Below are positions 3,619 to 39,658 of a DNA stretch of 64,000 nucleotides, piece by piece; position 1 is the stretch's first letter; each line of letters opens with the position of its first letter. A program made the translations under genes and the position numbers. The stretch covers positions 96,001 through 160,000 of IMG/VR virus record IMGVR_UViG_3300020576_003495, one strand, 5' to 3'. A model generated the notes under the pieces. That model saw only the letters and a program-made list of their open reading frames with translations. It did no database searches and was not told where the DNA came from. The stretch comes from a virus. Its lineage: Duplodnaviria; Caudoviricetes.

Positions 3619-4087
3619 GCCTGTTATTTGTCTTGACTCCGATGGTGTGTTTTCTGACTTTCATGGGTTTCTGAAAGATCATGGGCTAGTTCACGGTGAT
3701 AGGAACATGTGGGCAGAGTTGTCCAAGATTCCCAATGCCTTCTATAAAATGAAGGTTTTGCCTGACGCACTTAAACTCTATGCGGCCATAAAGCATCATC
3801 GTCATTATGTTCTCACAGCGATGCCGCGCCCCACAGGATACCTGTCTACCTCAAAAGAAGACAAGGTGAAGTGGTGGGCAAATAACGTGAGTCCCGATGT
3901 GGACGTGGTAGTTGTTTCTTCAGGAAAAGAAAAAGCAGCGCATGCAGCACCGAACAAAATCTTGATTGACGATCTTCAACGTAACATCGGCATGTGGGAG
4001 AATGCGGGGGGGATCGGTATCCTTCACAAGTCTGTTCCAGAGACACTAGAAGAACTACGTGGGCTAGGTCTGCTTTCTGTAGCGTAA
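3608..4087 (+). CDS. HAD-family 5'(3')-deoxyribonucleotidase-like protein
   Basis: DSDGV, LT, K, ILIDD HAD motifs. Confidence 0.85.
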   Translation: MVGKPVICLDSDGVFSDFHGFLKDHGLVHGDRNMWAELSKIPNAFYKMKVLPDALKLYAAIKHHRHYVLTAMPRPTGYLSTSKEDKVKWWANNVSPDVDVVVVSSGKEKAAHAAPNKILIDDLQRNIGMWENAGGIGILHKSVPETLEELRGLGLLSVA

Positions 4088-24896: not shown

Positions 24897-24923
24897 GGGG
24901 GTATGGCTCAATTGGCACAGCAC
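24897..24923 (+). pseudogene. 5' remnant of an Ala-type tRNA
   Basis: GGGGGTA-TG-GCTCAATTGGCACAGC. Confidence 0.78.
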
Positions 24924-24940
24924 TTATGGTATACTAGGGT

Positions 24941-25417
24941 ATGAGTTATATATTTGTACCCGCCCCTGAGAATTACCCCGGAACGATCTACCAGTACGGT
25001 AATAGAATTTTAGAACACCATTTAGTGTGGTGGTTGTCTACGGGGTTACTTGTTCCAGATGGTTACGTTTTGCACCATAAAGACGAAGACCCAACTAACA
25101 ATGAATTTAGTAACTTGGAGTTGATGCTTGAGGGTGACCATATCCGCCACCACAACACACAGCACACCATTGCTAGATTTGTATGCCGTAGGTGCGGAAA
25201 TACGTTTGACCGAAATACCAGAGTTATTTCTGATGGGTCAAAACATATCTATTGCTCAAAAAGGTGTTCAGCGCTCAGCACATCAGGAAGATGCCGCCTT
25301 AGCGAAGATATGAAGGAAAAAGTGCGGTTGCTTAGAATTTCTGGTGGGTCGACTAGAAGTATTTCCAGAGAGTTAGGTATTAGTCGCAACACTGTGATGA
25401 AGTATTGGGGGATATAG
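24941..25417 (+). CDS. HNH homing endonuclease with C-terminal HTH
   Basis: LEHHLVWW, LHHKDEDPTNNEFSNL, LGISRNTVMKYW. Confidence 0.9.
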   Translation: MSYIFVPAPENYPGTIYQYGNRILEHHLVWWLSTGLLVPDGYVLHHKDEDPTNNEFSNLELMLEGDHIRHHNTQHTIARFVCRRCGNTFDRNTRVISDGSKHIYCSKRCSALSTSGRCRLSEDMKEKVRLLRISGGSTRSISRELGISRNTVMKYWGI

Positions 25418-25478
25418 ATGGGCTAAACAACTGATTTGCAATCAGTTAGGGACGGATCGTTACCGTCATTCTCCACCA
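25407..25478 (+). tRNA. tRNA-Ala(TGC), reduced D arm
   Basis: G3:U70 pair, A73, AACTGA-TTTGCAA-TCAGTT, CCA. Confidence 0.85.
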
Positions 25479-26326: not shown

Positions 26327-26366
26327 TGGCGAGGAGGTTGTTGGTTACCAGACAGGCTCATAACCT
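26327..26366 (+). pseudogene. 5' remnant of a CAT-anticodon tRNA
   Basis: retains D region and AGG-CTCATAA-CCT, lacks T arm and 3' strand. Confidence 0.75.
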
Positions 26367-26405
26367 TTTTCGCTAGTTGTGTTATGATACCCGTGGGGGT
26401 ATGCA

Positions 26406-26858
26406 ATGACACACTTACTATGTTGCAGTTGTAAAGAAAGCAAGCCTTTAGCTAGCTTTTCCAAAGACAAGAGTTCAAAGCGTGGGTACGCTAGTAAATG
26501 TAAAGACTGCCATAATACCTACGTGCGTACTGTGTGGTACCCAAAGAACAAGGATAAGCAGGTAGCGTCTGTTGCTCGTTTTAAAACAGCCAACAGACTG
26601 AAAGAAATCGCTTGGCGGCACGGTGTTCCGTTAGCGGATGTAGAAGAAGCAATAGAGCGCAGTTCTGGGGCTTGTGAAAGCTGCGGTTCCACTGTCTCTG
26701 TTGTGCTAGACCACTGCCACACCACGTCTAAAGTTAGAGGCGTCTTGTGCATGCGTTGTAATACAGTTTTAGGTAGGCTAGGGGATTCTTACGAGAGTGT
26801 TAAACAGCACATGGAGAGTTTGCTGGCCTATTTGGAAAAAAGTTTCGCGGGTGAGTGA
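26406..26858 (+). CDS. endonuclease VII-like homing endonuclease
   Basis: CESCG...LDHCHTT..VRGVLC..CN..LG. Confidence 0.9.
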   Translation: MTHLLCCSCKESKPLASFSKDKSSKRGYASKCKDCHNTYVRTVWYPKNKDKQVASVARFKTANRLKEIAWRHGVPLADVEEAIERSSGACESCGSTVSVVLDHCHTTSKVRGVLCMRCNTVLGRLGDSYESVKQHMESLLAYLEKSFAGE

Positions 26859-26923
26859 AACGTCTTACACAATGGGTTCATATCCCATTAACAGCAGGGT
26901 TAGACTCCCTGTACCCGCAACCA
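26846..26923 (+). tRNA. initiator tRNA-fMet(CAT)
   Basis: C1:A72 mismatch, GGG/CCC anticodon stem, CCA. Confidence 0.9.
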
Positions 26924-28148: not shown

Positions 28149-28223
28149 GTGTCCCTGACAGAGAGGCCGATGTGCAGGATTGCAAACCCTGATAGCCCGG
28201 TTCAATTCCGGGGGGACACTCCA
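28149..28223 (+). tRNA. tRNA-Cys(GCA)
   Basis: loop TTGCAAA, U73, CCA. Confidence 0.9.
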
Positions 28224-28226
28224 AGT

Positions 28227-28378
28227 TACGTAGCATCACGGAAGGAACGTGCGTGGCCCACGAGGTCGATGGGGTACGGTCAGTTTTCATGTGGGGGTCG
28301 ACGCCCTAACATGCAAAGCTTAATGCTGTGCTGACAAGAAGGTGAGCAGGGCGCAACCCTGTAAGACCTTCCTACGTA
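28227..28378 (+). ncRNA. structured ncRNA candidate
   Basis: closed by TACGTAG/CTACGTA, internal hairpins, flanked by tRNAs. Confidence 0.45.
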
Positions 28379-28381
28379 TTT

Positions 28382-28459
28382 GCGCTCTGAGCTAGTCTGG
28401 TGATTCAGCGACAGTTTGAAGAACTGTAGAACTAGGTTCGATTCCTAGAGGGTGCACCA
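28382..28459 (+). tRNA. tRNA-Phe(GAA)
   Basis: ACAGT-TTGAAGA-ACTGT, CCA. Confidence 0.88.
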
Positions 28460-28478
28460 AGATTACTGTATAGTCGAG

Positions 28479-28553
28479 TGGGGTGATATGCAATGGATGC
28501 ATACTTGGCTTTGAACCAAGGTTAGTCAGGTTCGATTCCTACCACCCCTTCCA
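28479..28553 (+). tRNA. tRNA-Gln(TTG)
   Basis: CTTGG-CTTTGAA-CCAAG, CCA. Confidence 0.88.
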
Positions 28554-28559
28554 GTTTTT

Positions 28560-28643
28560 AGAGAGATGAGCTTTGGAAGCAAACTATCTTGGAAAGGTAG
28601 TCCATCCGAAAGGGTGACAGTTCGATTCTGTATCTCTCTGCCA
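28560..28643 (+). tRNA. tRNA-Ser(GGA)
   Basis: CTATC-TTGGAAA-GGTAG, long variable arm. Confidence 0.88.
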
Positions 28644-28651
28644 TGTTTTAA

Positions 28652-28739
28652 GGTTAGGTGCGCGAGTGGCTAAAGCGTCTTGTTTGCTAAACAATGAGTC
28701 CGAAAGGGCACTAGGGTTCGAACCCCTACCTAACCGCCA
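28652..28739 (+). tRNA. tRNA-Ser(GCT)
   Basis: loop TTGCTAA, long variable arm, CCA. Confidence 0.92.
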
Positions 28740-28745
28740 TGTTAC

Positions 28746-28822
28746 GCCGGGTTGACGGAATTGGCATACGTGCAAGTTTCAAAAACTTGATCTTGCGGGT
28801 TCGACTCCCGCACCCGGCACCA
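28746..28822 (+). tRNA. tRNA-Leu(CAA), short variable arm
   Basis: CAAGT-TTCAAAA-ACTTG, CCA. Confidence 0.9.
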
Positions 28823-28828
28823 AGTTTT

Positions 28829-28905
28829 GCCCTTGTGGTGGAATAGGCATACACACGCGCTTGAGGGGTGCGGTTCTGTCGGTTCGAGTCCGACCAAGGG
28901 TACCA
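28829..28905 (+). tRNA. tRNA-Leu(GAG), short variable arm
   Basis: CGCGC-TTGAGGG-GTGCG, CCA. Confidence 0.9.
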
Positions 28906-28911
28906 GTCTAT

Positions 28912-28982
28912 GCCCTCACTATCGAATAGCATCAGGTTTCCTAAACCAGATTGTGACAGTTAAACTCTGTCTGAGGGCACCA
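28912..28982 (+). tRNA. tRNA-Arg(CCT), minimal D arm
   Basis: loop TTCCTAA, perfect acceptor and T stems, CCA. Confidence 0.8.
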
Positions 28983-28983
28983 T

Positions 28984-29054
28984 ACCCCGACTGTGGGACA
29001 GATTTTGGCCTTCTAAGCCAAAAATGGGAGGTTCGAAACCTTCTCGGGGTGCCA
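28984..29054 (+). tRNA. tRNA-Arg(TCT), minimal D arm
   Basis: TTGGC-CTTCTAA-GCCAA, CCA. Confidence 0.82.
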
Positions 29055-29060
29055 AGTTTT

Positions 29061-29134
29061 GCGGATGTAGCTTAGTGATAAAGCGCTTGTTTGCCAAGCA
29101 AGATACGCGAGTTTGATTCTCGTCTTCCGCTCCA
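29061..29134 (+). tRNA. tRNA-Gly(GCC)
   Basis: loop TTGCCAA, U73, CCA. Confidence 0.9.
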
Positions 29135-29140
29135 AGTTTC

Positions 29141-29215
29141 GCCCTTGTAGCACAGTGGCAGTGCACTCGCTTGGTAAGCGAGAGGTCGTGGGTTCGATTC
29201 CGACCAAGGGCACCA
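29141..29215 (+). tRNA. tRNA-Thr(GGT)
   Basis: CTCGC-TTGGTAA-GCGAG. Confidence 0.92.
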
Positions 29216-29221
29216 AGTTTC

Positions 29222-29296
29222 GCCCTTTTAGCGCAGTGATAGAGCAATCGTTTCGTAAGCGATAGGTCGTCTGTTTGATTCAGACAAGGGGCACCA
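29222..29296 (+). tRNA. tRNA-Thr(CGT)
   Basis: ATCGT-TTCGTAA-GCGAT. Confidence 0.9.
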
Positions 29297-29306
29297 GAGT
29301 TTTAAT

Positions 29307-29383
29307 GGGACGTTAGCTCAGTCGGTAGTAGCACTCGCCTCTTAAGCGATAGGTCGTCAGTTCGATCCTGACACGTCCTACCA
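29307..29383 (+). tRNA. tRNA-Lys(CTT)
   Basis: loop CTCTTAA, CCA. Confidence 0.92.
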
Positions 29384-30808: not shown

Positions 30809-31216
30809 ATGAAGAATGGTGAGTATACTTTAGTCATAGCGCCTGAAGGGTATCCGGGCAAGAGGTACCGTGGTCGCTACTGCTATGAACATCATTTGGT
30901 TTGGTGGTTGAATACAGGTGAAGTCGTACTTGCTGGCGAGTTGATTCACCACAAAGATGAGGACAAGCGCAATAACGTTTTCCTTAACCTTGAGAAAATG
31001 TCAAAGACTTCTCATGATGCACACCACAGTAACCTACCGATTAAGTCGCCTGTTCTGGTGTCTCTTTTTTGTTTTTGGTGCGGTTCTGCTTTCACCTTGA
31101 GGAAGCATGTTTACGTGTGCAGGGTTAGAGCTAACGGGCATGCTGATGTGTGTTGTGGAAGGTCGTGCCAAGTCAAGAAGCAGCAGCATGACAAAAAAGT
31201 TAAAAAGGAAAATTAA
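30809..31216 (+). CDS. HNH homing endonuclease
   Basis: YEHHLVWW, IHHKDEDKRNN..NLE; related to 24941..25417. Confidence 0.9.
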   Translation: MKNGEYTLVIAPEGYPGKRYRGRYCYEHHLVWWLNTGEVVLAGELIHHKDEDKRNNVFLNLEKMSKTSHDAHHSNLPIKSPVLVSLFCFWCGSAFTLRKHVYVCRVRANGHADVCCGRSCQVKKQQHDKKVKKEN

Positions 31217-31290
31217 GCTATCAGGGTATAGCCTCTGCCTCGAAAACAGAAGGTTCCGAAAGGGATGAGTTTCGATTACTCAATTTTCCA
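31207..31290 (+). tRNA. tRNA-Ser(CGA), no encoded CCA
   Basis: GGAAAAT/ATTTTCC, loop CTCGAAA, long variable arm. Confidence 0.85.
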
Positions 31291-31341
31291 CACTAAAACT
31301 GTTCGACTTCTGCTAAAATATTATTTTTGTGGAGTCGAACC

Positions 31342-31866
31342 ATGCGGATAAGTAAAAAACAAATAGCTAGGTTTTGGTCTAACGTGCAGAAAACAGATAG
31401 CTGTTGGCTTTGGTTGCGGCAACCAAATAATAAAGGCTACGGTAAGGTAACTATAAGGCCGAATAGTCAAGAGCGTGTAATGCTATTGGCACACAGGCTA
31501 GCTTGGCTTCTAGTTAAAGGTGAAATACCAGATGGGTTATTTGTCCTACACAAGTGCGATACTCCCTTGTGTTGCAATCCCGAACACTTATTCCTTGGAA
31601 CTCAACAAGATAACATGGGTGATATGTGGGCTAAGGGGCGCAGTCGACTGCATGAGTTCAGGCACTTGGGGACGATTGCTGCACATACTGAAGTGGCTAC
31701 GCAAAAGCGGAAAGATACGTTTATTGCCATTGAACACCAGAAGGGTAAGCGCAACTCGCAGTTTGGGTCTTTTTGGATTACCGATGGTAAAGTTAATAAG
31801 AAGTGGCGTTCTGAGTTGGGCTGTATCCCCTCTGGTTTTTTTAAAGGACGTAGTAAATTTTTTTAA
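31342..31866 (+). CDS. HNH homing endonuclease
   Basis: CWLW, AHRLAW, VLHKCDTPLCCNPEHLFLGTQQDN. Confidence 0.93.
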   Translation: MRISKKQIARFWSNVQKTDSCWLWLRQPNNKGYGKVTIRPNSQERVMLLAHRLAWLLVKGEIPDGLFVLHKCDTPLCCNPEHLFLGTQQDNMGDMWAKGRSRLHEFRHLGTIAAHTEVATQKRKDTFIAIEHQKGKRNSQFGSFWITDGKVNKKWRSELGCIPSGFFKGRSKFF

Positions 31867-31871
31867 GTTTT

Positions 31872-31959
31872 GGAAACGTGGCAGAGTGGTCAATTGCACC
31901 GGCTTTGAATACCGGCAGTCCGAAAGGGCACGTGCGTTCGAATCGCACCGTTTCCGCCA
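31872..31959 (+). tRNA. tRNA-Ser(TGA)
   Basis: loop TTTGAAT, long variable arm, CCA. Confidence 0.92.
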
Positions 31960-33281: not shown

Positions 33282-33492
33282 GATAAATTTACCTGAGTTT
33301 CCCCCCTTAGACTCGAAACATTATCCCTCTGATGAAGCCATCTCTGCGGAGCTAAAAAGACGTAGAGCGTTGATTGACGCAGCATGGCCTGATGATCTTG
33401 AAGTGTCCGACGACGAACTGCATGAATTGGGTTACGCTGTAGAAAAGACCGGGGACAACAAGGGTCTTAACGTGATCTTGGGGCGCGGTTAG
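33274..33492 (+). CDS. small acidic protein (candidate immunity protein)
   Basis: AGGAG RBS, overlaps the stop of the upstream gene. Confidence 0.65.
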   Translation: MPKINLPEFPPLDSKHYPSDEAISAELKRRRALIDAAWPDDLEVSDDELHELGYAVEKTGDNKGLNVILGRG

Positions 33493-33516
33493 TCTGCACG
33501 GTTGATTGGAGTTGCT

Positions 33517-35133
33517 ATGTTTGCTGCCCTACTAAGAAATGATATATCTTATGTCCTTAAAGGGGATGTGGTAGGCCACCCTTTCCGTGGAAACCAATAT
33601 GGAAAAGGCGTATCCCAAGGCCAAGACTATACCGACAGTAAGGGCCGTGCACATATTGGTGATTTAGACCCAACACAGCGCAGAGCAGAGTCGGCGTTTT
33701 ATGGTGCTATTGAAAAAGATTTGCCGTCGCTGATCAAAGCCTATCAGGAAAAGAACGGGCACACGATTGACGCGGATAAGGTAAAAGAACTATCCCCCGA
33801 TTTCCTGTCGAACCCTTCTTTGTTTGCTGCTGCCGTGCATGAGCCTAGTTCGTTGCTCTCCAAGGTGTTGTTTAGTACAGAACTGGATGCTAAGGCCAAA
33901 GCAGGGGATACTAGCCCCACGATACTGACCGCAGGTGGCAGTGGGTCGGGCAAGAGCGAAGCCATGCCGATTGTGCTAAAGGCCATCAACGCTAAAAAGG
34001 GTGGTTTGGTTTTTGATTCTGTCTTGGGTAACTTTGGTTCAGCCAAGAGCAAGATTGATGAAGCCTTGGTTAAAACTAAAGGTGATGTGGTGATTGCCTA
34101 CACCAACAGAAAACTTGAGGACGCTTTCCGTTCAAACGCTAAACGTGCACGCACAGTTTTGACGAAGACGTTGGTTGGTGCACATGTCGGTGCTTCTAAT
34201 AATATTAGAAAGCTGGCAGAACACTACGCTGGAAATCCTCGTGTGAAAATCCACGTGGTCAATAATTTTGGGGGTGTCGAGGATATTCACCAAGGAAAAT
34301 TGGAGGATGTTCCCACATACGGTTCAGATACAACCGATAAACTGCATGCAATTGCTGATACAATGCATGCCAACAAGGAAATTAGTGATGAAATCTACGC
34401 CCACATTACAAAAGGACGATCCGTTCAGAAAAGCTGCGCTCGAATTCTCAAAGAAACATCCGGGAAAAACTTTGGACGATATTGCTTTGGAACAGGAGAA
34501 GGAATCCGATGCCAGAGCAGCGGAACACCTGAAGAATCCGAAGGTGCAAGCGGCGTTCGGAAAGGCGAGTCCGCAGGGCACCCCTTCCGGGGAAACCAAT
34601 ACACCAGCAAAGACATTGGAACAGGTGGTGGAACAAATCAATCAGGAGCTAGCGGAGACAGTTCCCTTCCACTTCGGGCAGACGGGAAAGTAGAGCTAAC
34701 GCACTGGTCGAATGCGGCTAATTTGAGCAGCATTGATCCTTCGCACTACGGTCACGGCTATGCGGGGGCTGAAAAAGCACGTAAGGACTCTGACCCTGAT
34801 GATTGGGTCGACAGGAGTTACTACGGCATTGGTGTAGGCCAGCCGGGGGGCTATGAAAAAGAAGAAGGCTTGGGTAGTCACAAGTACATCAGTGGTGTTG
34901 ATCCCAAGTCGCTCTACGATATTGTCAAAGACCCCGATGGGCTGAATCCCAAAGGCACGCTGGATAGCTGGACAAACCAGATGAGCCTGTATGAGAAAAA
35001 CATCAAGGGCAAAGGGTATACAGGATACTGGTTGAAGCACCCGAGTCTAGGGATGGTTGCAGCGGTGTTCAAGCCCCTTGTCCCTGAGCAGTACATTGCC
35101 CCCGTACAGAAGTTCGCTAAGTTCTTCAGATAA
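33517..35133 (+). CDS. two-domain protein: zeta-toxin-like kinase plus unknown C-terminal domain
   Basis: AGGSGSGKS, VHEPSS, FDSVL; GHPFRGNQY motif precedes each domain. Confidence 0.75.
   Translation: MFAALLRNDISYVLKGDVVGHPFRGNQYGKGVSQGQDYTDSKGRAHIGDLDPTQRRAESAFYGAIEKDLPSLIKAYQEKNGHTIDADKVKELSPDFLSNPSLFAAAVHEPSSLLSKVLFSTELDAKAKAGDTSPTILTAGGSGSGKSEAMPIVLKAINAKKGGLVFDSVLGNFGSAKSKIDEALVKTKGDVVIAYTNRKLEDAFRSNAKRARTVLTKTLVGAHVGASNNIRKLAEHYAGNPRVKIHVVNNFGGVEDIHQGKLEDVPTYGSDTTDKLHAIADTMHANKEISDEIYAHITKGRSVQKSCARILKETSGKNFGRYCFGTGEGIRCQSSGTPEESEGASGVRKGESAGHPFRGNQYTSKDIGTGGGTNQSGASGDSSLPLRADGKVELTHWSNAANLSSIDPSHYGHGYAGAEKARKDSDPDDWVDRSYYGIGVGQPGGYEKEEGLGSHKYISGVDPKSLYDIVKDPDGLNPKGTLDSWTNQMSLYEKNIKGKGYTGYWLKHPSLGMVAAVFKPLVPEQYIAPVQKFAKFFR
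34388..34693 (+). CDS. out-of-frame nested ORF (candidate antitoxin)
   Basis: AAGGAA RBS, helical charged product, overlaps the interdomain linker of 33517..35133. Confidence 0.5.
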   Translation: MKSTPTLQKDDPFRKAALEFSKKHPGKTLDDIALEQEKESDARAAEHLKNPKVQAAFGKASPQGTPSGETNTPAKTLEQVVEQINQELAETVPFHFGQTGK

Positions 35134-35138
35134 GTTTT

Positions 35139-35162
35139 GCCGGTTTCGCATAGTGGGATTGC
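35139..35162 (+). pseudogene. 5' half of a disrupted Thr-type tRNA
   Basis: GCCGGTT plus D arm; pairs with AACCGGC-ACCA ending at 35899. Confidence 0.85.
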
Positions 35163-35234
35163 CCTTACTAGCTTAGTGGCATTGCACTAAATCTTTTCTC
35201 CGTGTATACTGTTGGCTTTTGCGGAGACTAGCCG

Positions 35235-35777
35235 ATGAAAGGGATACCACTAACATACCCTTATAATGATTGTGTGGGTTACATTCAACACAGTAAGGAC
35301 GGCAGGGCGTATTTGTACCTATACAACCCAACAACTAAAAGAAGGCGTCTAATAGCTTACGCTAGGTATTTATTGTCTGTGGAGTTGGGGCGCTTTTTGC
35401 TGCCAGAAGAACAAGTTGACCACATAGACGATAACCCGCTTAACGATGCGTTGTCTAATCTACAGGTTCTCTCTGTGGATGACCACAAGAAAAAGACAGC
35501 TAAGAGTGCTGCCAGCAAAATAGAGTGGGTAGAGTTTTCTTGCCCTACATGCGGTGTTAAATTTAAACGCACTAGGCGAATTGTTAACCAGAGTATGAAG
35601 TCTTATGGTGATAGTTGGGCTCCAAGCTGTTCGATAAGCTGCGCTACGGCACGCACTAAAGGTACATCTGACGACACTAAGCTTAAAATAAAACAGCTTA
35701 GGCTTTTGGGGCAGTCTGGTTATGAAATAGCCAGTGCTCTAGGCGTTAGCAGGAACACGGTAATGAAGTATTGGTAA
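35235..35777 (+). CDS. HNH homing endonuclease with C-terminal HTH
   Basis: VDHIDDNPLNDALSNL, LGVSRNTVMKYW; paralog of 1668..2210. Confidence 0.9.
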   Translation: MKGIPLTYPYNDCVGYIQHSKDGRAYLYLYNPTTKRRRLIAYARYLLSVELGRFLLPEEQVDHIDDNPLNDALSNLQVLSVDDHKKKTAKSAASKIEWVEFSCPTCGVKFKRTRRIVNQSMKSYGDSWAPSCSISCATARTKGTSDDTKLKIKQLRLLGQSGYEIASALGVSRNTVMKYW

Positions 35778-35781
35778 TTTT

Positions 35782-35857
35782 GCTTTCGTGCCTCAATTGG
35801 TACAGGACAACTCTTGTAAGGTTGCATTTGTCGGTTCGAGTCCGACCGAAAGCTCCA
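35782..35857 (+). tRNA. tRNA-Thr(TGT)
   Basis: CAACT-CTTGTAA-GGTTG, CCA. Confidence 0.92.
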
Positions 35858-35863
35858 AGAACG

Positions 35864-35899
35864 CAGCTTGAGTGTGTTCGATTCACACAACCGGCACCA
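35864..35899 (+). pseudogene. 3' half of the disrupted Thr-type tRNA
   Basis: GTGTG-TTCGATT-CACAC-AACCGGC-A-CCA. Confidence 0.85.
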
Positions 35900-35965
35900 A
35901 AATAATGCTTGACAAAACTGTTGCATAGAGTAGAATCACTTCCACTTATAACGGAGTGATTAAAT

Positions 35966-36659: not shown

Positions 36660-36710
36660 GCACCCACCAAAAAACTCTTGACAAACGTAGATGGTTGCAG
36701 TAGACTGTAG

Positions 36711-36985
36711 TTGTGTTTCGGAGAATCGTTAGAGTGAAACACGGTATGGAAGACAGGACGCGCATTCCGGCATCAAAAAGCGCCTGAGTTACCCGAATCG
36801 AGTAGGGTTGGCCTCTGAAAAGAGTAAGTCCAGTAAGGGTGTTAGTAAGGGAACGGTGACGCGGATCGGTGTAGCGTAGGTGCCTTCGGGCCGAGAGTGG
36901 CAAAGTATGAGCCAGCAGACCATGTAGCCGACAACGAGCCTGACACAAAGCCGCGAGTAGTGTAGACGACGATTCTCCAAAACAA
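36711..36985 (+). ncRNA. promoter-driven structured ncRNA candidate
   Basis: TTGACA-17-TAGACT upstream; terminal helix GGAGAATCGTT/GACGATTCTCC; no ORF. Confidence 0.65.
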
Positions 36986-37691: not shown

Positions 37692-37855
37692 GCAAGGGTA
37701 GTTCAGTCCGGTAGAACCATCGCTCTGGATATATTGAAACGGAAACAGCTAAGGAAAACAAGTAAGGCTGATACCTGCCACACTGCACCCGAAAAGTGCA
37801 ACACTGTGGCCTCAAGTGAGTGTAATCGCAGGTTCGAATCCTGCCCCTTGCACCT
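37692..37855 (+). ncRNA. tRNA-like RNA with a ~90-nt structured insert replacing the anticodon loop
   Basis: perfect acceptor GCAAGGG/CCCTTGC, canonical D and T arms. Confidence 0.8.
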
Positions 37856-38302
37856 AACGGATATTTATGAAACTGACTGACGAATTAAAAAACAAGATTG
37901 ACAGCATGAGCTACATTGACATGCTAGCCCAGTGGCGGTTTTACCCAATTGGCTACGAACTGTTTCAGGATGAATCGGGTGAGTATTTCTCAAACAGGCT
38001 GTTTGCTTTGCGGGATGCTTATCCAGATGCCGCTGTGGCCGCAAGCAAATCAATAGGGTGGGATCAATGAAAGCCGCTATCGTTATTGATTCATGGAAGT
38101 ACGAGATTTTTGATCGCAACCTTCGTCAGTTTGGTTATGCTTATGAAGAAGCCCCAAGCCTGACTAAGACTACACGGACGCTTCTGGTTAAGACCGACAA
38201 TCTTGAAGCCTTGGCTGAAGTCGTGAAGAAATCAAACATCGAAGCGGCTAAGACAAAAAAGGCTTGACAAATGTTTTAACCTGCTGTATCATACTTTTCT
38301 TT

Positions 38303-38384
38303 GAAAACCTTTTCGTAGTCCAGTGGCAAGATATGTGACATACCAGACACGACGGCGGGTTCGATTCCCCCCGAAAAGGTTTTC
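38303..38384 (+). ncRNA. tRNA-like RNA with 13-bp acceptor helix and no valid anticodon arm
   Basis: GAAAACCTTTTCG/CGAAAAGGTTTTC, D-like and TTCGATT loops. Confidence 0.6.
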
Positions 38385-38698: not shown

Positions 38699-38875
38699 AG
38701 TTTTAGTCAGTGCAGTGCATCGGAACGGTTCGGGTTCTGGTTGGCAGCAAGGTCGTGTCATGGTCGAAACAGTTGATGCGGTACTGCACTTACTAAAGTC
38801 AGGTCTGTATTGAGGTTGTCACAGGTTCCATACCCCTATGGCTGGAAATCCGGCAACGGTAGAGCAGACTTGATA

Positions 38876-39150
38876 ATTGCTGTAATTCTACTTGACGGTA
38901 AGCGTTTCGGACGCGGGGGCAGAACCCGCCGCCTCCACCAAACAGGGTCTTGCAAAGGGCTTTGCTTAATGGGGGCGACACAGTTTCGACGGGGCGTGGA
39001 TAAGATGGTGGCAGCAGGATAGGTGACTGCCCTAAGCAGCGCAAAACTTTAACTGCAAACGACTCGCAGTATCGTGTAGCGGCTTAGCCGTTACGGAGTT
39101 TGCCCACCAAACCTACTTTGTAGGGGGCTTGGCAACAGAAAGTGGGCAGT
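38876..39150 (+). ncRNA. ssrA: permuted two-piece tmRNA, tag (A)ANDSQYRVAA
   Basis: acceptor piece ends CGCCTCCACCA (38940) upstream of coding piece GGGGGCGAC...TTCGAC (38971); tag ORF 39055-39087. Confidence 0.93.
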
Positions 39151-39658
39151 ACTTTTTATGGTCACCCATAAAAAAATTAAACGCCATTTCTTTACGGCAG
39201 ATAAGGCAGCTAACCCTACGTTGTTTTTTACCCTGCATGGGGTTGTTACCAGAAGCCGATTGTTCTTTTCGTTTAGTTGTGATGTAGTCTTTGAAAGACG
39301 GGTCATCCCTAGTTTTTTTCCACAAGGCACCAGACCCGAGTATTCCAGCGGCTCGTTTGTTCATAGTGCTAAATAGCACGGGCTGGACGGCTATATTGAG
39401 GCTTTGTTTAGACGCATAAGTTTCGCGTATAAGGGATTGTTCATATTCAAACGCAGCTTCTTTATTGGGAAACTCAGCAATAACTTTGTAGTCGAACAAC
39501 TTGAATCGGGGTTTTACTAGCTTAGACGAGGTTTTATAAATGTGCCCAAGGTCTTCAAGGGCGGGTACTTTATTAGCCCACCTGACACCGATATAAAATT
39601 CTTGTGTTTCTCTGTTGGTGCATTGGTACACGTATGGTAGTATTTTAGGTGAGGTCAT
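39113..39658 (-). CDS. GIY-YIG-like homing endonuclease
   Basis: YVYQCTN...FYIGVR, YEQ..I, NNPMQGKK. Confidence 0.8.
   Translation of the reverse strand: MTSPKILPYVYQCTNRETQEFYIGVRWANKVPALEDLGHIYKTSSKLVKPRFKLFDYKVIAEFPNKEAAFEYEQSLIRETYASKQSLNIAVQPVLFSTMNKRAAGILGSGALWKKTRDDPSFKDYITTKRKEQSASGNNPMQGKKQRRVSCLICRKEMAFNFFMGDHKKYCPLSVAKPPTK

Follow-up and report, generated by a model that had tools for sequence, protein, structure and literature searches.

SegB, the free-standing nuclease of phages T4 and T6, recognises transfer RNA (tRNA) genes by a T-psi-C motif, spreads the tRNA genes that neighbour it, and abuts a tRNA-Arg gene (PMC2330249), and it drives the amplification of tRNA-Tyr (PMC13096335). 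We analyzed an arrangement comparable with it in a stretch of 64,000 nucleotides, hereafter the window, taken from a phage-like contig of 178,170 bp (IMG/VR record IMGVR_UViG_3300020576_003495, bases 96001-160000). The window carries some 30 clustered tRNA genes and a gene for a transfer-messenger RNA (tmRNA) in two pieces. At positions 35139-35899 of the window, the 5' and 3' parts of a tRNA gene bracket a nuclease gene and an intact tRNA-Thr(UGU) gene, and we consider it probable that this cassette is a free-standing homing endonuclease lodged inside a tRNA gene and carrying its own replacement tRNA. As with SegB, the nuclease is free-standing in a phage tRNA cluster, would read tRNA gene sequence, and is encoded by an open reading frame (ORF) that ends at a tRNA gene; SegB further drives the inheritance of itself and of neighbouring tRNA genes, and its mRNA is cut by tRNA processing, 2 features that the cassette would share. 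In contrast, SegB is a GIY-YIG enzyme and not an HNH enzyme as here, its target is the conserved T-psi-C sequence, and it lies between intact tRNA genes, with neither a matched spare of a destroyed isoacceptor nor flanking scars described for it.

Site-specific endonucleases encoded by ORFs in a phage tRNA gene cluster are known from a 2004 study, as cited in PMC2330249. Where the citing texts treat these endonucleases, they make no mention of one nested, along with a spare of the same anticodon, inside a split tRNA. The enzymes belong to the HNH type. In the intronless homing of SegF, SegG, and MobE (Belle et al. 2002, cited in PMC13096335; PMC2790892), relatives that lack the nuclease are cut in the homologous region, as the cassette would do, and a resistant donor allele next to it is co-converted; there, however, the nuclease has an intergenic position, and resistance comes from the donor's own version of the adjacent gene, whereas the cassette brings a foreign second copy in place of a gene whose remains still stand on both sides. 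Group I introns with homing endonucleases in the anticodon loops of bacterial tRNA genes (review PMC3984707) also place a mobile nuclease element in the anticodon region. These introns keep the gene functional by splicing, whereas the cassette has no ribozyme and function would be restored by the spare gene. I-HmuI (PDB 1u3e), the nicking HNH enzyme of the SPO1 DNA polymerase intron, shares with the cassette protein an elongated modular build and a C-terminal helix-turn-helix module. Unlike the cassette protein, which has a Cys4 zinc finger between its modules and no intron around it, I-HmuI is intron-encoded, and splicing saves its host gene.

Integrases that target tRNA genes bring along a duplicate of the 3' end that they displace and restore this 3' end only, by site-specific recombination, and 'cleave and rescue' (ClvR) gene drives are synthetic and Cas9-based. 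Both resemble the cassette in that an essential gene is damaged and a resistant or replacement copy is supplied in the element; the cassette differs from them in being natural, in its predicted nuclease drive, and in replacing a whole tRNA. We found no description, in the literature searched, of a nuclease and a spare tRNA inside a split tRNA gene. The cassette differs from the known cases in sitting inside its putative target gene, with both ends of that gene kept and a diverged same-anticodon gene added, and in needing neither an intron nor a resistant neighbour.

Two parts of a tRNA gene around a nuclease gene and an intact tRNA

The 2 scars of the old tRNA gene, like the other features of the cassette apart from an unstranded spacer, lie on the plus strand. 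The 5' scar (35139..35168) covers tRNA positions 1-31, with the acceptor strand GCCGGTT, positions 8-9 (TC), the D arm (GCAT AGTGGGA TTGC), position 26 (C), and the anticodon-stem strand CTTAC; it starts 5 nt past the stop codon of the gene for a 543-aa protein that flanks the cassette upstream (33502-35133) and is preceded by a GTTTY leader. The 3' scar (35872..35899) contains the T stem GTGTG/CACAC, the T loop TTCGATT, the acceptor strand AACCGGC, the discriminator A, and CCA, and the remains kept amount to positions 1-31 and about 49-76 of a tRNA. The acceptor strands of the 2 scars pair at 7 of 7 positions (5' scar with 35889-35895), and because this pairing is perfect, both scars derive from one tRNA. 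Given the 3' scar, the exact string GCCGGTT would be expected about 0.006 times by chance within a spacer of ~100 nt, by our own arithmetic. The pattern of a T arm followed by 7 nt, any nucleotide, and CCA was found 27 times on the plus strand of the 178-kb genome, and neither on its minus strand nor in 20 shuffled genomes. In truncated mode, Rfam aligned 35858-35896 to tRNA positions 34-71 with 14.5 bits; the 5' scar on its own was not recognised by Rfam.

The initial annotation of the locus had described a cassette in which both old halves enclose an HNH-HTH ORF and tRNA-Thr(TGT), with the old anticodon loop deleted. All of these elements were recovered, and no anticodon loop or 3' anticodon-stem strand was found between the scars or in the flanks, where nothing pairs with CTTAC. 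The 14-nt spacer between the spare tRNA and the 3' scar (35858..35871, AGAACGCAGCTTGA), which has no pairing with CTTAC of the 5' scar either, was placed loosely by Infernal (posterior probability about 0.6) at tRNA positions 34-48 and may be what is left of a decayed variable loop or anticodon stem. Joining the scars at all plausible points gave ARAGORN 'tRNAs' of many isotypes, and the old anticodon was not recoverable in this way.

Of the 31 tRNAs of the genome, Thr(GGT) and Thr(CGT) resemble the scars most, in this order, although their lead is small (scores of 27 and 25 for the Thr tRNAs vs 24 and 23 for the next). The 3' scar matches tRNA-Thr(CGT) of the genome at about 23 of 28 positions by count (84% over 25 nt with blastn), with compensatory changes at pairs 4-69 and 5-68. 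The scars carry G1-C72, C2-G71, and A73, the determinants of Escherichia coli threonyl-tRNA synthetase; the Leu and Trp tRNAs of the phage likewise begin with GC. The place of the scars is that of an intact tRNA-Thr(UGU) in relatives, and from this position and the weak similarity we infer that the broken gene was a tRNA-Thr. A derivation of both halves from one tRNA-Thr, on which the initial annotation had staked its reading, agrees with the 7/7 pairing, with the synteny, and with the first 2 ranks in Thr likeness. The scars are most likely the remains of a tRNA-Thr in the lineage where the cassette first landed, and they have most likely moved along with the cassette since, the boundaries of exchange lying outside them.

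The tRNA-Thr(UGU) carried by the cassette (35782..35857), called by ARAGORN as Thr(TGT), starts 4 nt after the stop codon of the nuclease and is the sole Thr(UGU) tRNA of the 178-kb genome. It scored 57.1 bits in Rfam (threshold 29, E 3.6e-10), and the acceptor, anticodon, and T arms are formed in its minimum-free-energy fold. The gene has the acceptor GCTTTCG/CGAAAGC, the anticodon arm CAACT-CUUGUAA-GGTTG, the T loop TTCGAGT, U73, and an encoded CCA, as well as G1-C72, C2-G71, and G35-U36, and none of its stems has the sequence seen in the old gene or in the tRNA-Thr(UGU) of relatives. No donor of this spare tRNA was found in IMG/VR by an exact-pattern scan. Its T arm (35829-35847) is identical over 19 nt to that of tRNA-Leu(GAG) in the same cluster (28877-28895), an identity that may be fortuitous or left over from recombination between tRNAs.

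Filled and empty sites in relatives

Relatives were found by a protein look-up with the flanking 543-aa protein in Logan and ENA assemblies, where its orthologues are 78-90% identical (82-85% in the cassette-free relatives); no relatives of the locus were found among GenBank phages by megablast, blastn, or tblastn, and none of the flanking protein in IMG/VR or JGI metagenomes. The cassette was identified in L001, with 1 mismatch in 866 bases, and in L013 and L016, where it is identical to that of the window, and the JGI contig L015 holds only its last 89 bases, the contig stopping within the T loop of the 3' scar. In L002, L003, and L004, the HNH gene is absent from the site and one intact tRNA-Thr(UGU) is present there, and 2 more contigs of the L004 type have the same HNH-free gene order in their gene tables. 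The site is polymorphic among close relatives, with a tRNA-Thr(UGU) alone in some and with scars, nuclease, and a different tRNA-Thr(UGU) in others. By gene content, one further relative has a 196-aa ORF at the site and another a gap of 148 nt only.

The empty-site tRNA-Thr(UGU) (GCCCCCG...CGGGGGCACCA; L004 2433-2510 and L002 6893-6970) scored 51 bits despite a 1-nt bulge in its T stem. As in the window, it is flanked by a GTTTY leader, common to the 5' scar and to the intact gene of L002 and L004, and by the trailer AAATAATGCTTGACAAAAC (downstream promoter); the strong promoter of the downstream gene (TTGACA-16-TAGAAT, 35909-35936 in the window) is common to the relatives. The empty-site tRNA has a long D loop as well as the T-stem bulge (GACAG / CTAGTC), and it is nearly identical in L002 and L004 although their flanks are only 73-86% alike. 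L004 adds a tRNA-Thr(CGT) just upstream of this gene, away from the position of that tRNA in the window.

From 35893 rightwards, a point that falls in the last bases of the tRNA, L004 and the window are 98.9-99.6% identical, and the tract in which L001 and L004 differ (34476-35893) ends in the 3' end of the tRNA. The 543-aa gene is itself a mosaic, with L001 equal to L004 (97-100%) over 33400-34475 and equal to the window (100%) from 34476, and the other pairs among the window, L001, L002, and L004 are 71-90% identical in this gene. In L002, the sequence past the stop codon of the 543-aa gene still encodes GDKAGHAFHGNQW. Another variable spot was seen at 36688-36985 of the window, where 297 bp correspond to 2157 bp with a 358-aa Aldolase_II-like ORF in L004 (3299-5456) and to only about 31 bp in L001. 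A cassette-free 39-kb Logan contig of SRR35987605 has, according to its gene table, a different 180-aa HNH_3 ORF within its tRNA run; the window counterpart of that site is a compact tRNA run (28149-29383), and this ORF was not among the homologues found for the window enzyme.

The locus had been put forward in the initial annotation as the best one for reconstructing a target site by rebuilding the ancestral gene. Because natural empty sites are available, it is indeed a good test case, but rebuilding is unneeded, and the empty sites are maybe not the allele that was first invaded.

The nuclease and its family

The nuclease gene (35235..35777) is free-standing, encodes 180 aa, and has its own start codon and Shine-Dalgarno sequence (GGAG, 35223-35226, 8 nt upstream of the ORF). 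The protein begins with a beta-hairpin, followed by an I-HmuI-like His-Me finger (D62-H63, N70, N75, H84), a CxxC...CxxxC zinc finger (C103, C106, C132, C136), and a C-terminal helix-turn-helix that ends SRNTVMKYW, with helices at 146-178 in the structure model. In the homologue alignment A2, D62-H63, N70, and N75 are invariant, H84 stands at the position of the last Asn of the family, and the 4 cysteines are invariant or nearly so. Matches were obtained to Pfam HNH_3 and HTH_23 and to PHROG 14913 'HNH endonuclease' (E 4e-33). When the structure model (mean predicted local distance difference test score, pLDDT, of 84) was compared with known folds, I-HmuI (1u3e) came out on top (prob 1.00, E 0.01), with a low template modelling (TM) score because the modules are splayed, and the family profile also has 1u3e as its top hit (E 0.011). 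The length is typical of the family, and because all family-invariant residues are present, the gene looks intact and active. We class the protein as an HNH/His-Me finger homing endonuclease with a separate DNA-binding module, its site-specific cleavage being predicted only.

The nearest homologues of the nuclease are 33-43% identical and occur in unrelated phages. Their stop codon lies 3-8 nt before a tRNA in 3 independent Logan/ENA contexts (Ile-UAU in L005, Met-CAU in L006-L010, and Met-CAU in L011-L012), and in IMG/VR 12 of 19 homologues have a tRNA that starts -25 to +80 nt from the stop, compared with 2 of the 46 other ORFs of these loci; the nuclease-linked tRNAs in IMG/VR often overlap the nuclease gene by 10 nt, and 2 of them are tRNA-Thr(UGU). 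We identified broken 5' parts of tRNAs, ending at about position 31, just upstream of the nuclease in L006-L012, L020, L031, L034, and L035, and such a 5' scar also lies directly upstream of the nuclease in the Ala unit of the window (24897-25478). Scars of the 3' part follow the spare tRNA in L006-L012 and L020. The scar ahead of the spare tRNA-Leu in L034 is of Leu type, and the scar beside the spare tRNA-Met(CAT) in L011 retains a CTCATAA loop. In L010 (861-942), 2 different 3' scars stand back to back after tRNA-Met (…CGTCAGTTCAAATCTGACACGGGATACCA, then GTCCCGAGTTCGAATCTCGGCGGTCCCACCA), which suggests repeated rounds of insertion at one site. The common scar junction suggests that the enzymes of the family act at the anticodon stem/loop boundary, and it is also by the anticodon region that the genes of different isoacceptors can be told apart.

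At its left end, the cassette of the window has a 12-nt string (CTAAATCWTTTC) in common with the L006 family, but this match was not significant (reached in 42/2000 shuffles). In L005, a tRNA-Leu-like gene (3654-3780) directly follows the unit of HNH gene and tRNA-Ile(UAU), and its anticodon loop holds an insert of ~45 nt with a T-arm-like hairpin (GAAAG TTCGATT CTTTC). The window has 4 further nuclease ORFs (24897-25478, 26327-26919, 30809-31291, and 31327-31959), each of which ends within about 10 nt of a tRNA gene; 3 of them are HNH_3 and 1 is Endonuclease VII-like, and the Ala and Met units have an upstream 5' scar.

A second tRNA fragment and other features of the cluster

Directly after the 5' scar, at 35169..35191, we identified a second tRNA-derived fragment (TAGCTTAGTGGCATTGCACTAAA, read as TA GCTT AGTGGCA TTGC A CTAAA) that corresponds to tRNA positions 8-30. 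It has a D arm of Thr type with a degenerate stem and is without an acceptor strand, and it is identical at 17 of 23 positions to positions 8-30 of tRNA-Thr(GGT) (29148-29170) and, at the same 17/23, to the 5' scar. Only 4 of 2000 shuffles of 35169-35234 reached 17/23 against any of 30 other tRNAs (p about 0.002). This string had been flagged in the initial annotation as possible debris of an earlier round; it is genuine tRNA-derived sequence of Thr type and may stem from such a round. The fragment could have been left as a 5' scar when a later cassette hit an intermediate spare tRNA, in nested rounds of the kind that the double 3' scars in L010 suggest. It could also be a scar that travelled in from an earlier host gene, or positions 8-31 of the first scar could have been duplicated locally.

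The promoter-like region noted earlier between the left scar and the ORF is present as TTGCAC-17 nt-TATACT (35182..35210, with the -10-like TATACT at 35205-35210), read from the sequence, but it is a weak one. Its -35 hexamer TTGCAC falls within the second tRNA fragment.

Further along the cluster, at 37692-37852, the window has a second tRNA with its middle replaced, in which 106 nt stand in place of the anticodon arm between an acceptor strand with D arm (GCAAGGG TA GTTCAGTCCGGTAGAAC) and a T arm with acceptor strand (GCAGG TTCGAAT CCTGC CCCTTGC A). This tRNA scored 40.4 bits in Rfam, was not called by ARAGORN, has no nuclease ORF inside, and ends in ACCT rather than ACCA; differences between the window and L004 cluster at 37802-37950. 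The two-piece (permuted, alpha-type) tmRNA lies at 38848-39178 beside tRNA-Gly and has the tag peptide ANDSQYRVAA, and an odd tRNA with a 2-nt 'anticodon' is found near it at 38308-38380.

Interpretation and alternative explanations

If the cassette is a homing endonuclease that carries its own replacement tRNA, its spread would take place in mixed infections, in which the nuclease would attack the intact tRNA-Thr(UGU) gene of relatives lacking the cassette by nicking or cutting it, probably in the anticodon arm, where the 5' scars of the family end. Recombinational repair from the cassette-bearing genome would then bring in the scars, the nuclease, and the spare tRNA by way of flank homology. 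The spare, with stems that all differ from those of the old gene and of the relatives' gene, is presumably left uncut, and it would restore the decoding of ACA and, by wobble, ACG codons; no intron would then be needed to make the invasion harmless. Transcripts of the nuclease gene are probably cut off where RNase P processes the spare tRNA, as proposed for T4 segB, which would keep expression low.

Several points weigh against this account. Cleavage of the intact tRNA-Thr(UGU) gene is a prediction from sequence, with a putative target site, and filled and empty alleles were never met in one sample. The tract that distinguishes L001 from L004 was considered as a nuclease-driven co-conversion tract, and the unrelated mosaic patch over 33400-34475 is the simpler explanation of it. 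By our own count, the scars have only about 56-64% identity with the intact tRNA-Thr(UGU) gene found at the empty sites, and the acceptors differ (GCCGGTT/AACCGGC in the scars vs GCCCCCG/CGGGGGC in the relatives). When IMG/VR and the JGI metagenomes were scanned for the exact pattern of the 3' scar, no intact gene of the GCCGGTT type turned up, so the first victim of the cassette was not observed, and the anticodon of the old gene is deleted, so that a replacement by the same isotype is argued from position. In the nuclease, the HNH_3 match (E 3.8e-5) has 23.7 bits against a Pfam cut-off of 24.8, and the HTH_23 match (E 2e-4) is likewise just below its curated cut-off. The promoter-like site of the cassette has 3/6 matches in its -35 hexamer and is absent from the list of a consensus scan.

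The alternative that survives best, although we judge it unlikely, keeps the same anatomy and dispenses with homing into tRNA-Thr: the nuclease would have some other target or nick generally, its coupling to the tRNA would be a matter of RNase P regulation, and the cassette would spread by ordinary recombination. It is in keeping with segB, whose stop codon abuts tRNA-Arg in an arrangement proposed to limit SegB synthesis (PMC2330249), with a region that is mosaic for reasons unrelated to the cassette, and with a nuclease target that is putative only. It leaves unexplained, however, the nuclease units between broken tRNA halves in several unrelated phages, the recurrent end of the 5' scars at about position 31, and the match of the spare to the anticodon of the empty site.

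Somewhat less likely again, in our view, the scars would have been left by tRNA-tRNA recombination or partial duplication, such as the segmental rearrangement after breaks that is seen with SegB in T6, with a nuclease-tRNA unit trapped between them and the old gene never a target. SegB-driven amplification does yield truncated copies through microhomology (PMC13096335), orphan tRNA 3' ends are present elsewhere in the cluster, and the second D-arm fragment resembles a local duplicate of the first scar. Yet the scars make up one tRNA by their acceptor pairing and bracket exactly one nuclease-tRNA unit, the relatives have a single intact gene at the site with no duplication, and the same bracket recurs around homologous nucleases in other phages.

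That the outer halves are a working gene, whether interrupted by a very long intron or expressed as a split tRNA whose pieces are joined after transcription, is very improbable: the halves do have perfect acceptor pairing, a well-formed T arm, and an encoded CCA (3' end AACCGGCACCA), and endonuclease-encoding group I introns are known from the anticodon loops of bacterial tRNAs (PMC3984707), but Rfam found no group I or group II intron or other ribozyme in 35139-35899, nor any ribozyme family in 22000-43000, at E up to 1, the flanks have no anticodon loop and no 3' strand that pairs with CTTAC, and a complete tRNA of the expected anticodon sits inside the halves. A tRNA gene with a group I intron was rejected for the lack of an Intron_gpI match and for joined flanks without an anticodon arm, and a split tRNA of the Nanoarchaeum type because the inner flanks of the scars share only the 4-nt palindrome AGCT and positions 32-48 are missing.

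Implications

The usual view is that homing endonucleases invade essential genes only under the cover of an intron or intein, or else adjoin their target. For a homing endonuclease that sits inside a tRNA gene with its own replacement, the damage would be repaired by the spare that it carries, which is the logic of cleave and rescue, apparently evolved by phages for tRNA genes. Such an element would account for the many nuclease genes in the tRNA clusters of phages and for the source of orphan tRNA fragments, and perhaps also for the fast divergence of phage tRNAs. The locus is useful in that filled and empty alleles occur in phages with about 99% identity along one of the flanks, and the enzyme, the candidate targets, and the presumably immune spare are all of known sequence, which makes the proposal directly testable. 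The nuclease family might also supply compact nucleases that read tRNA-gene sequences.

A wider reading, on which our judgement is evenly balanced, takes the cassette as one instance of a 'cleave and rescue' drive that arose naturally and acts on tRNA genes, run by a widespread family of I-HmuI-like nucleases. Each enzyme would read the anticodon arm of one tRNA gene, destroy that gene in rival phages, and install its own gene along with a tRNA that keeps the anticodon but is recoded so as to resist cutting, and repeated rounds would leave nested scars and drive the unusual divergence of phage tRNAs, including odd alleles such as the bulged T stem in the tRNA-Thr of the relatives.

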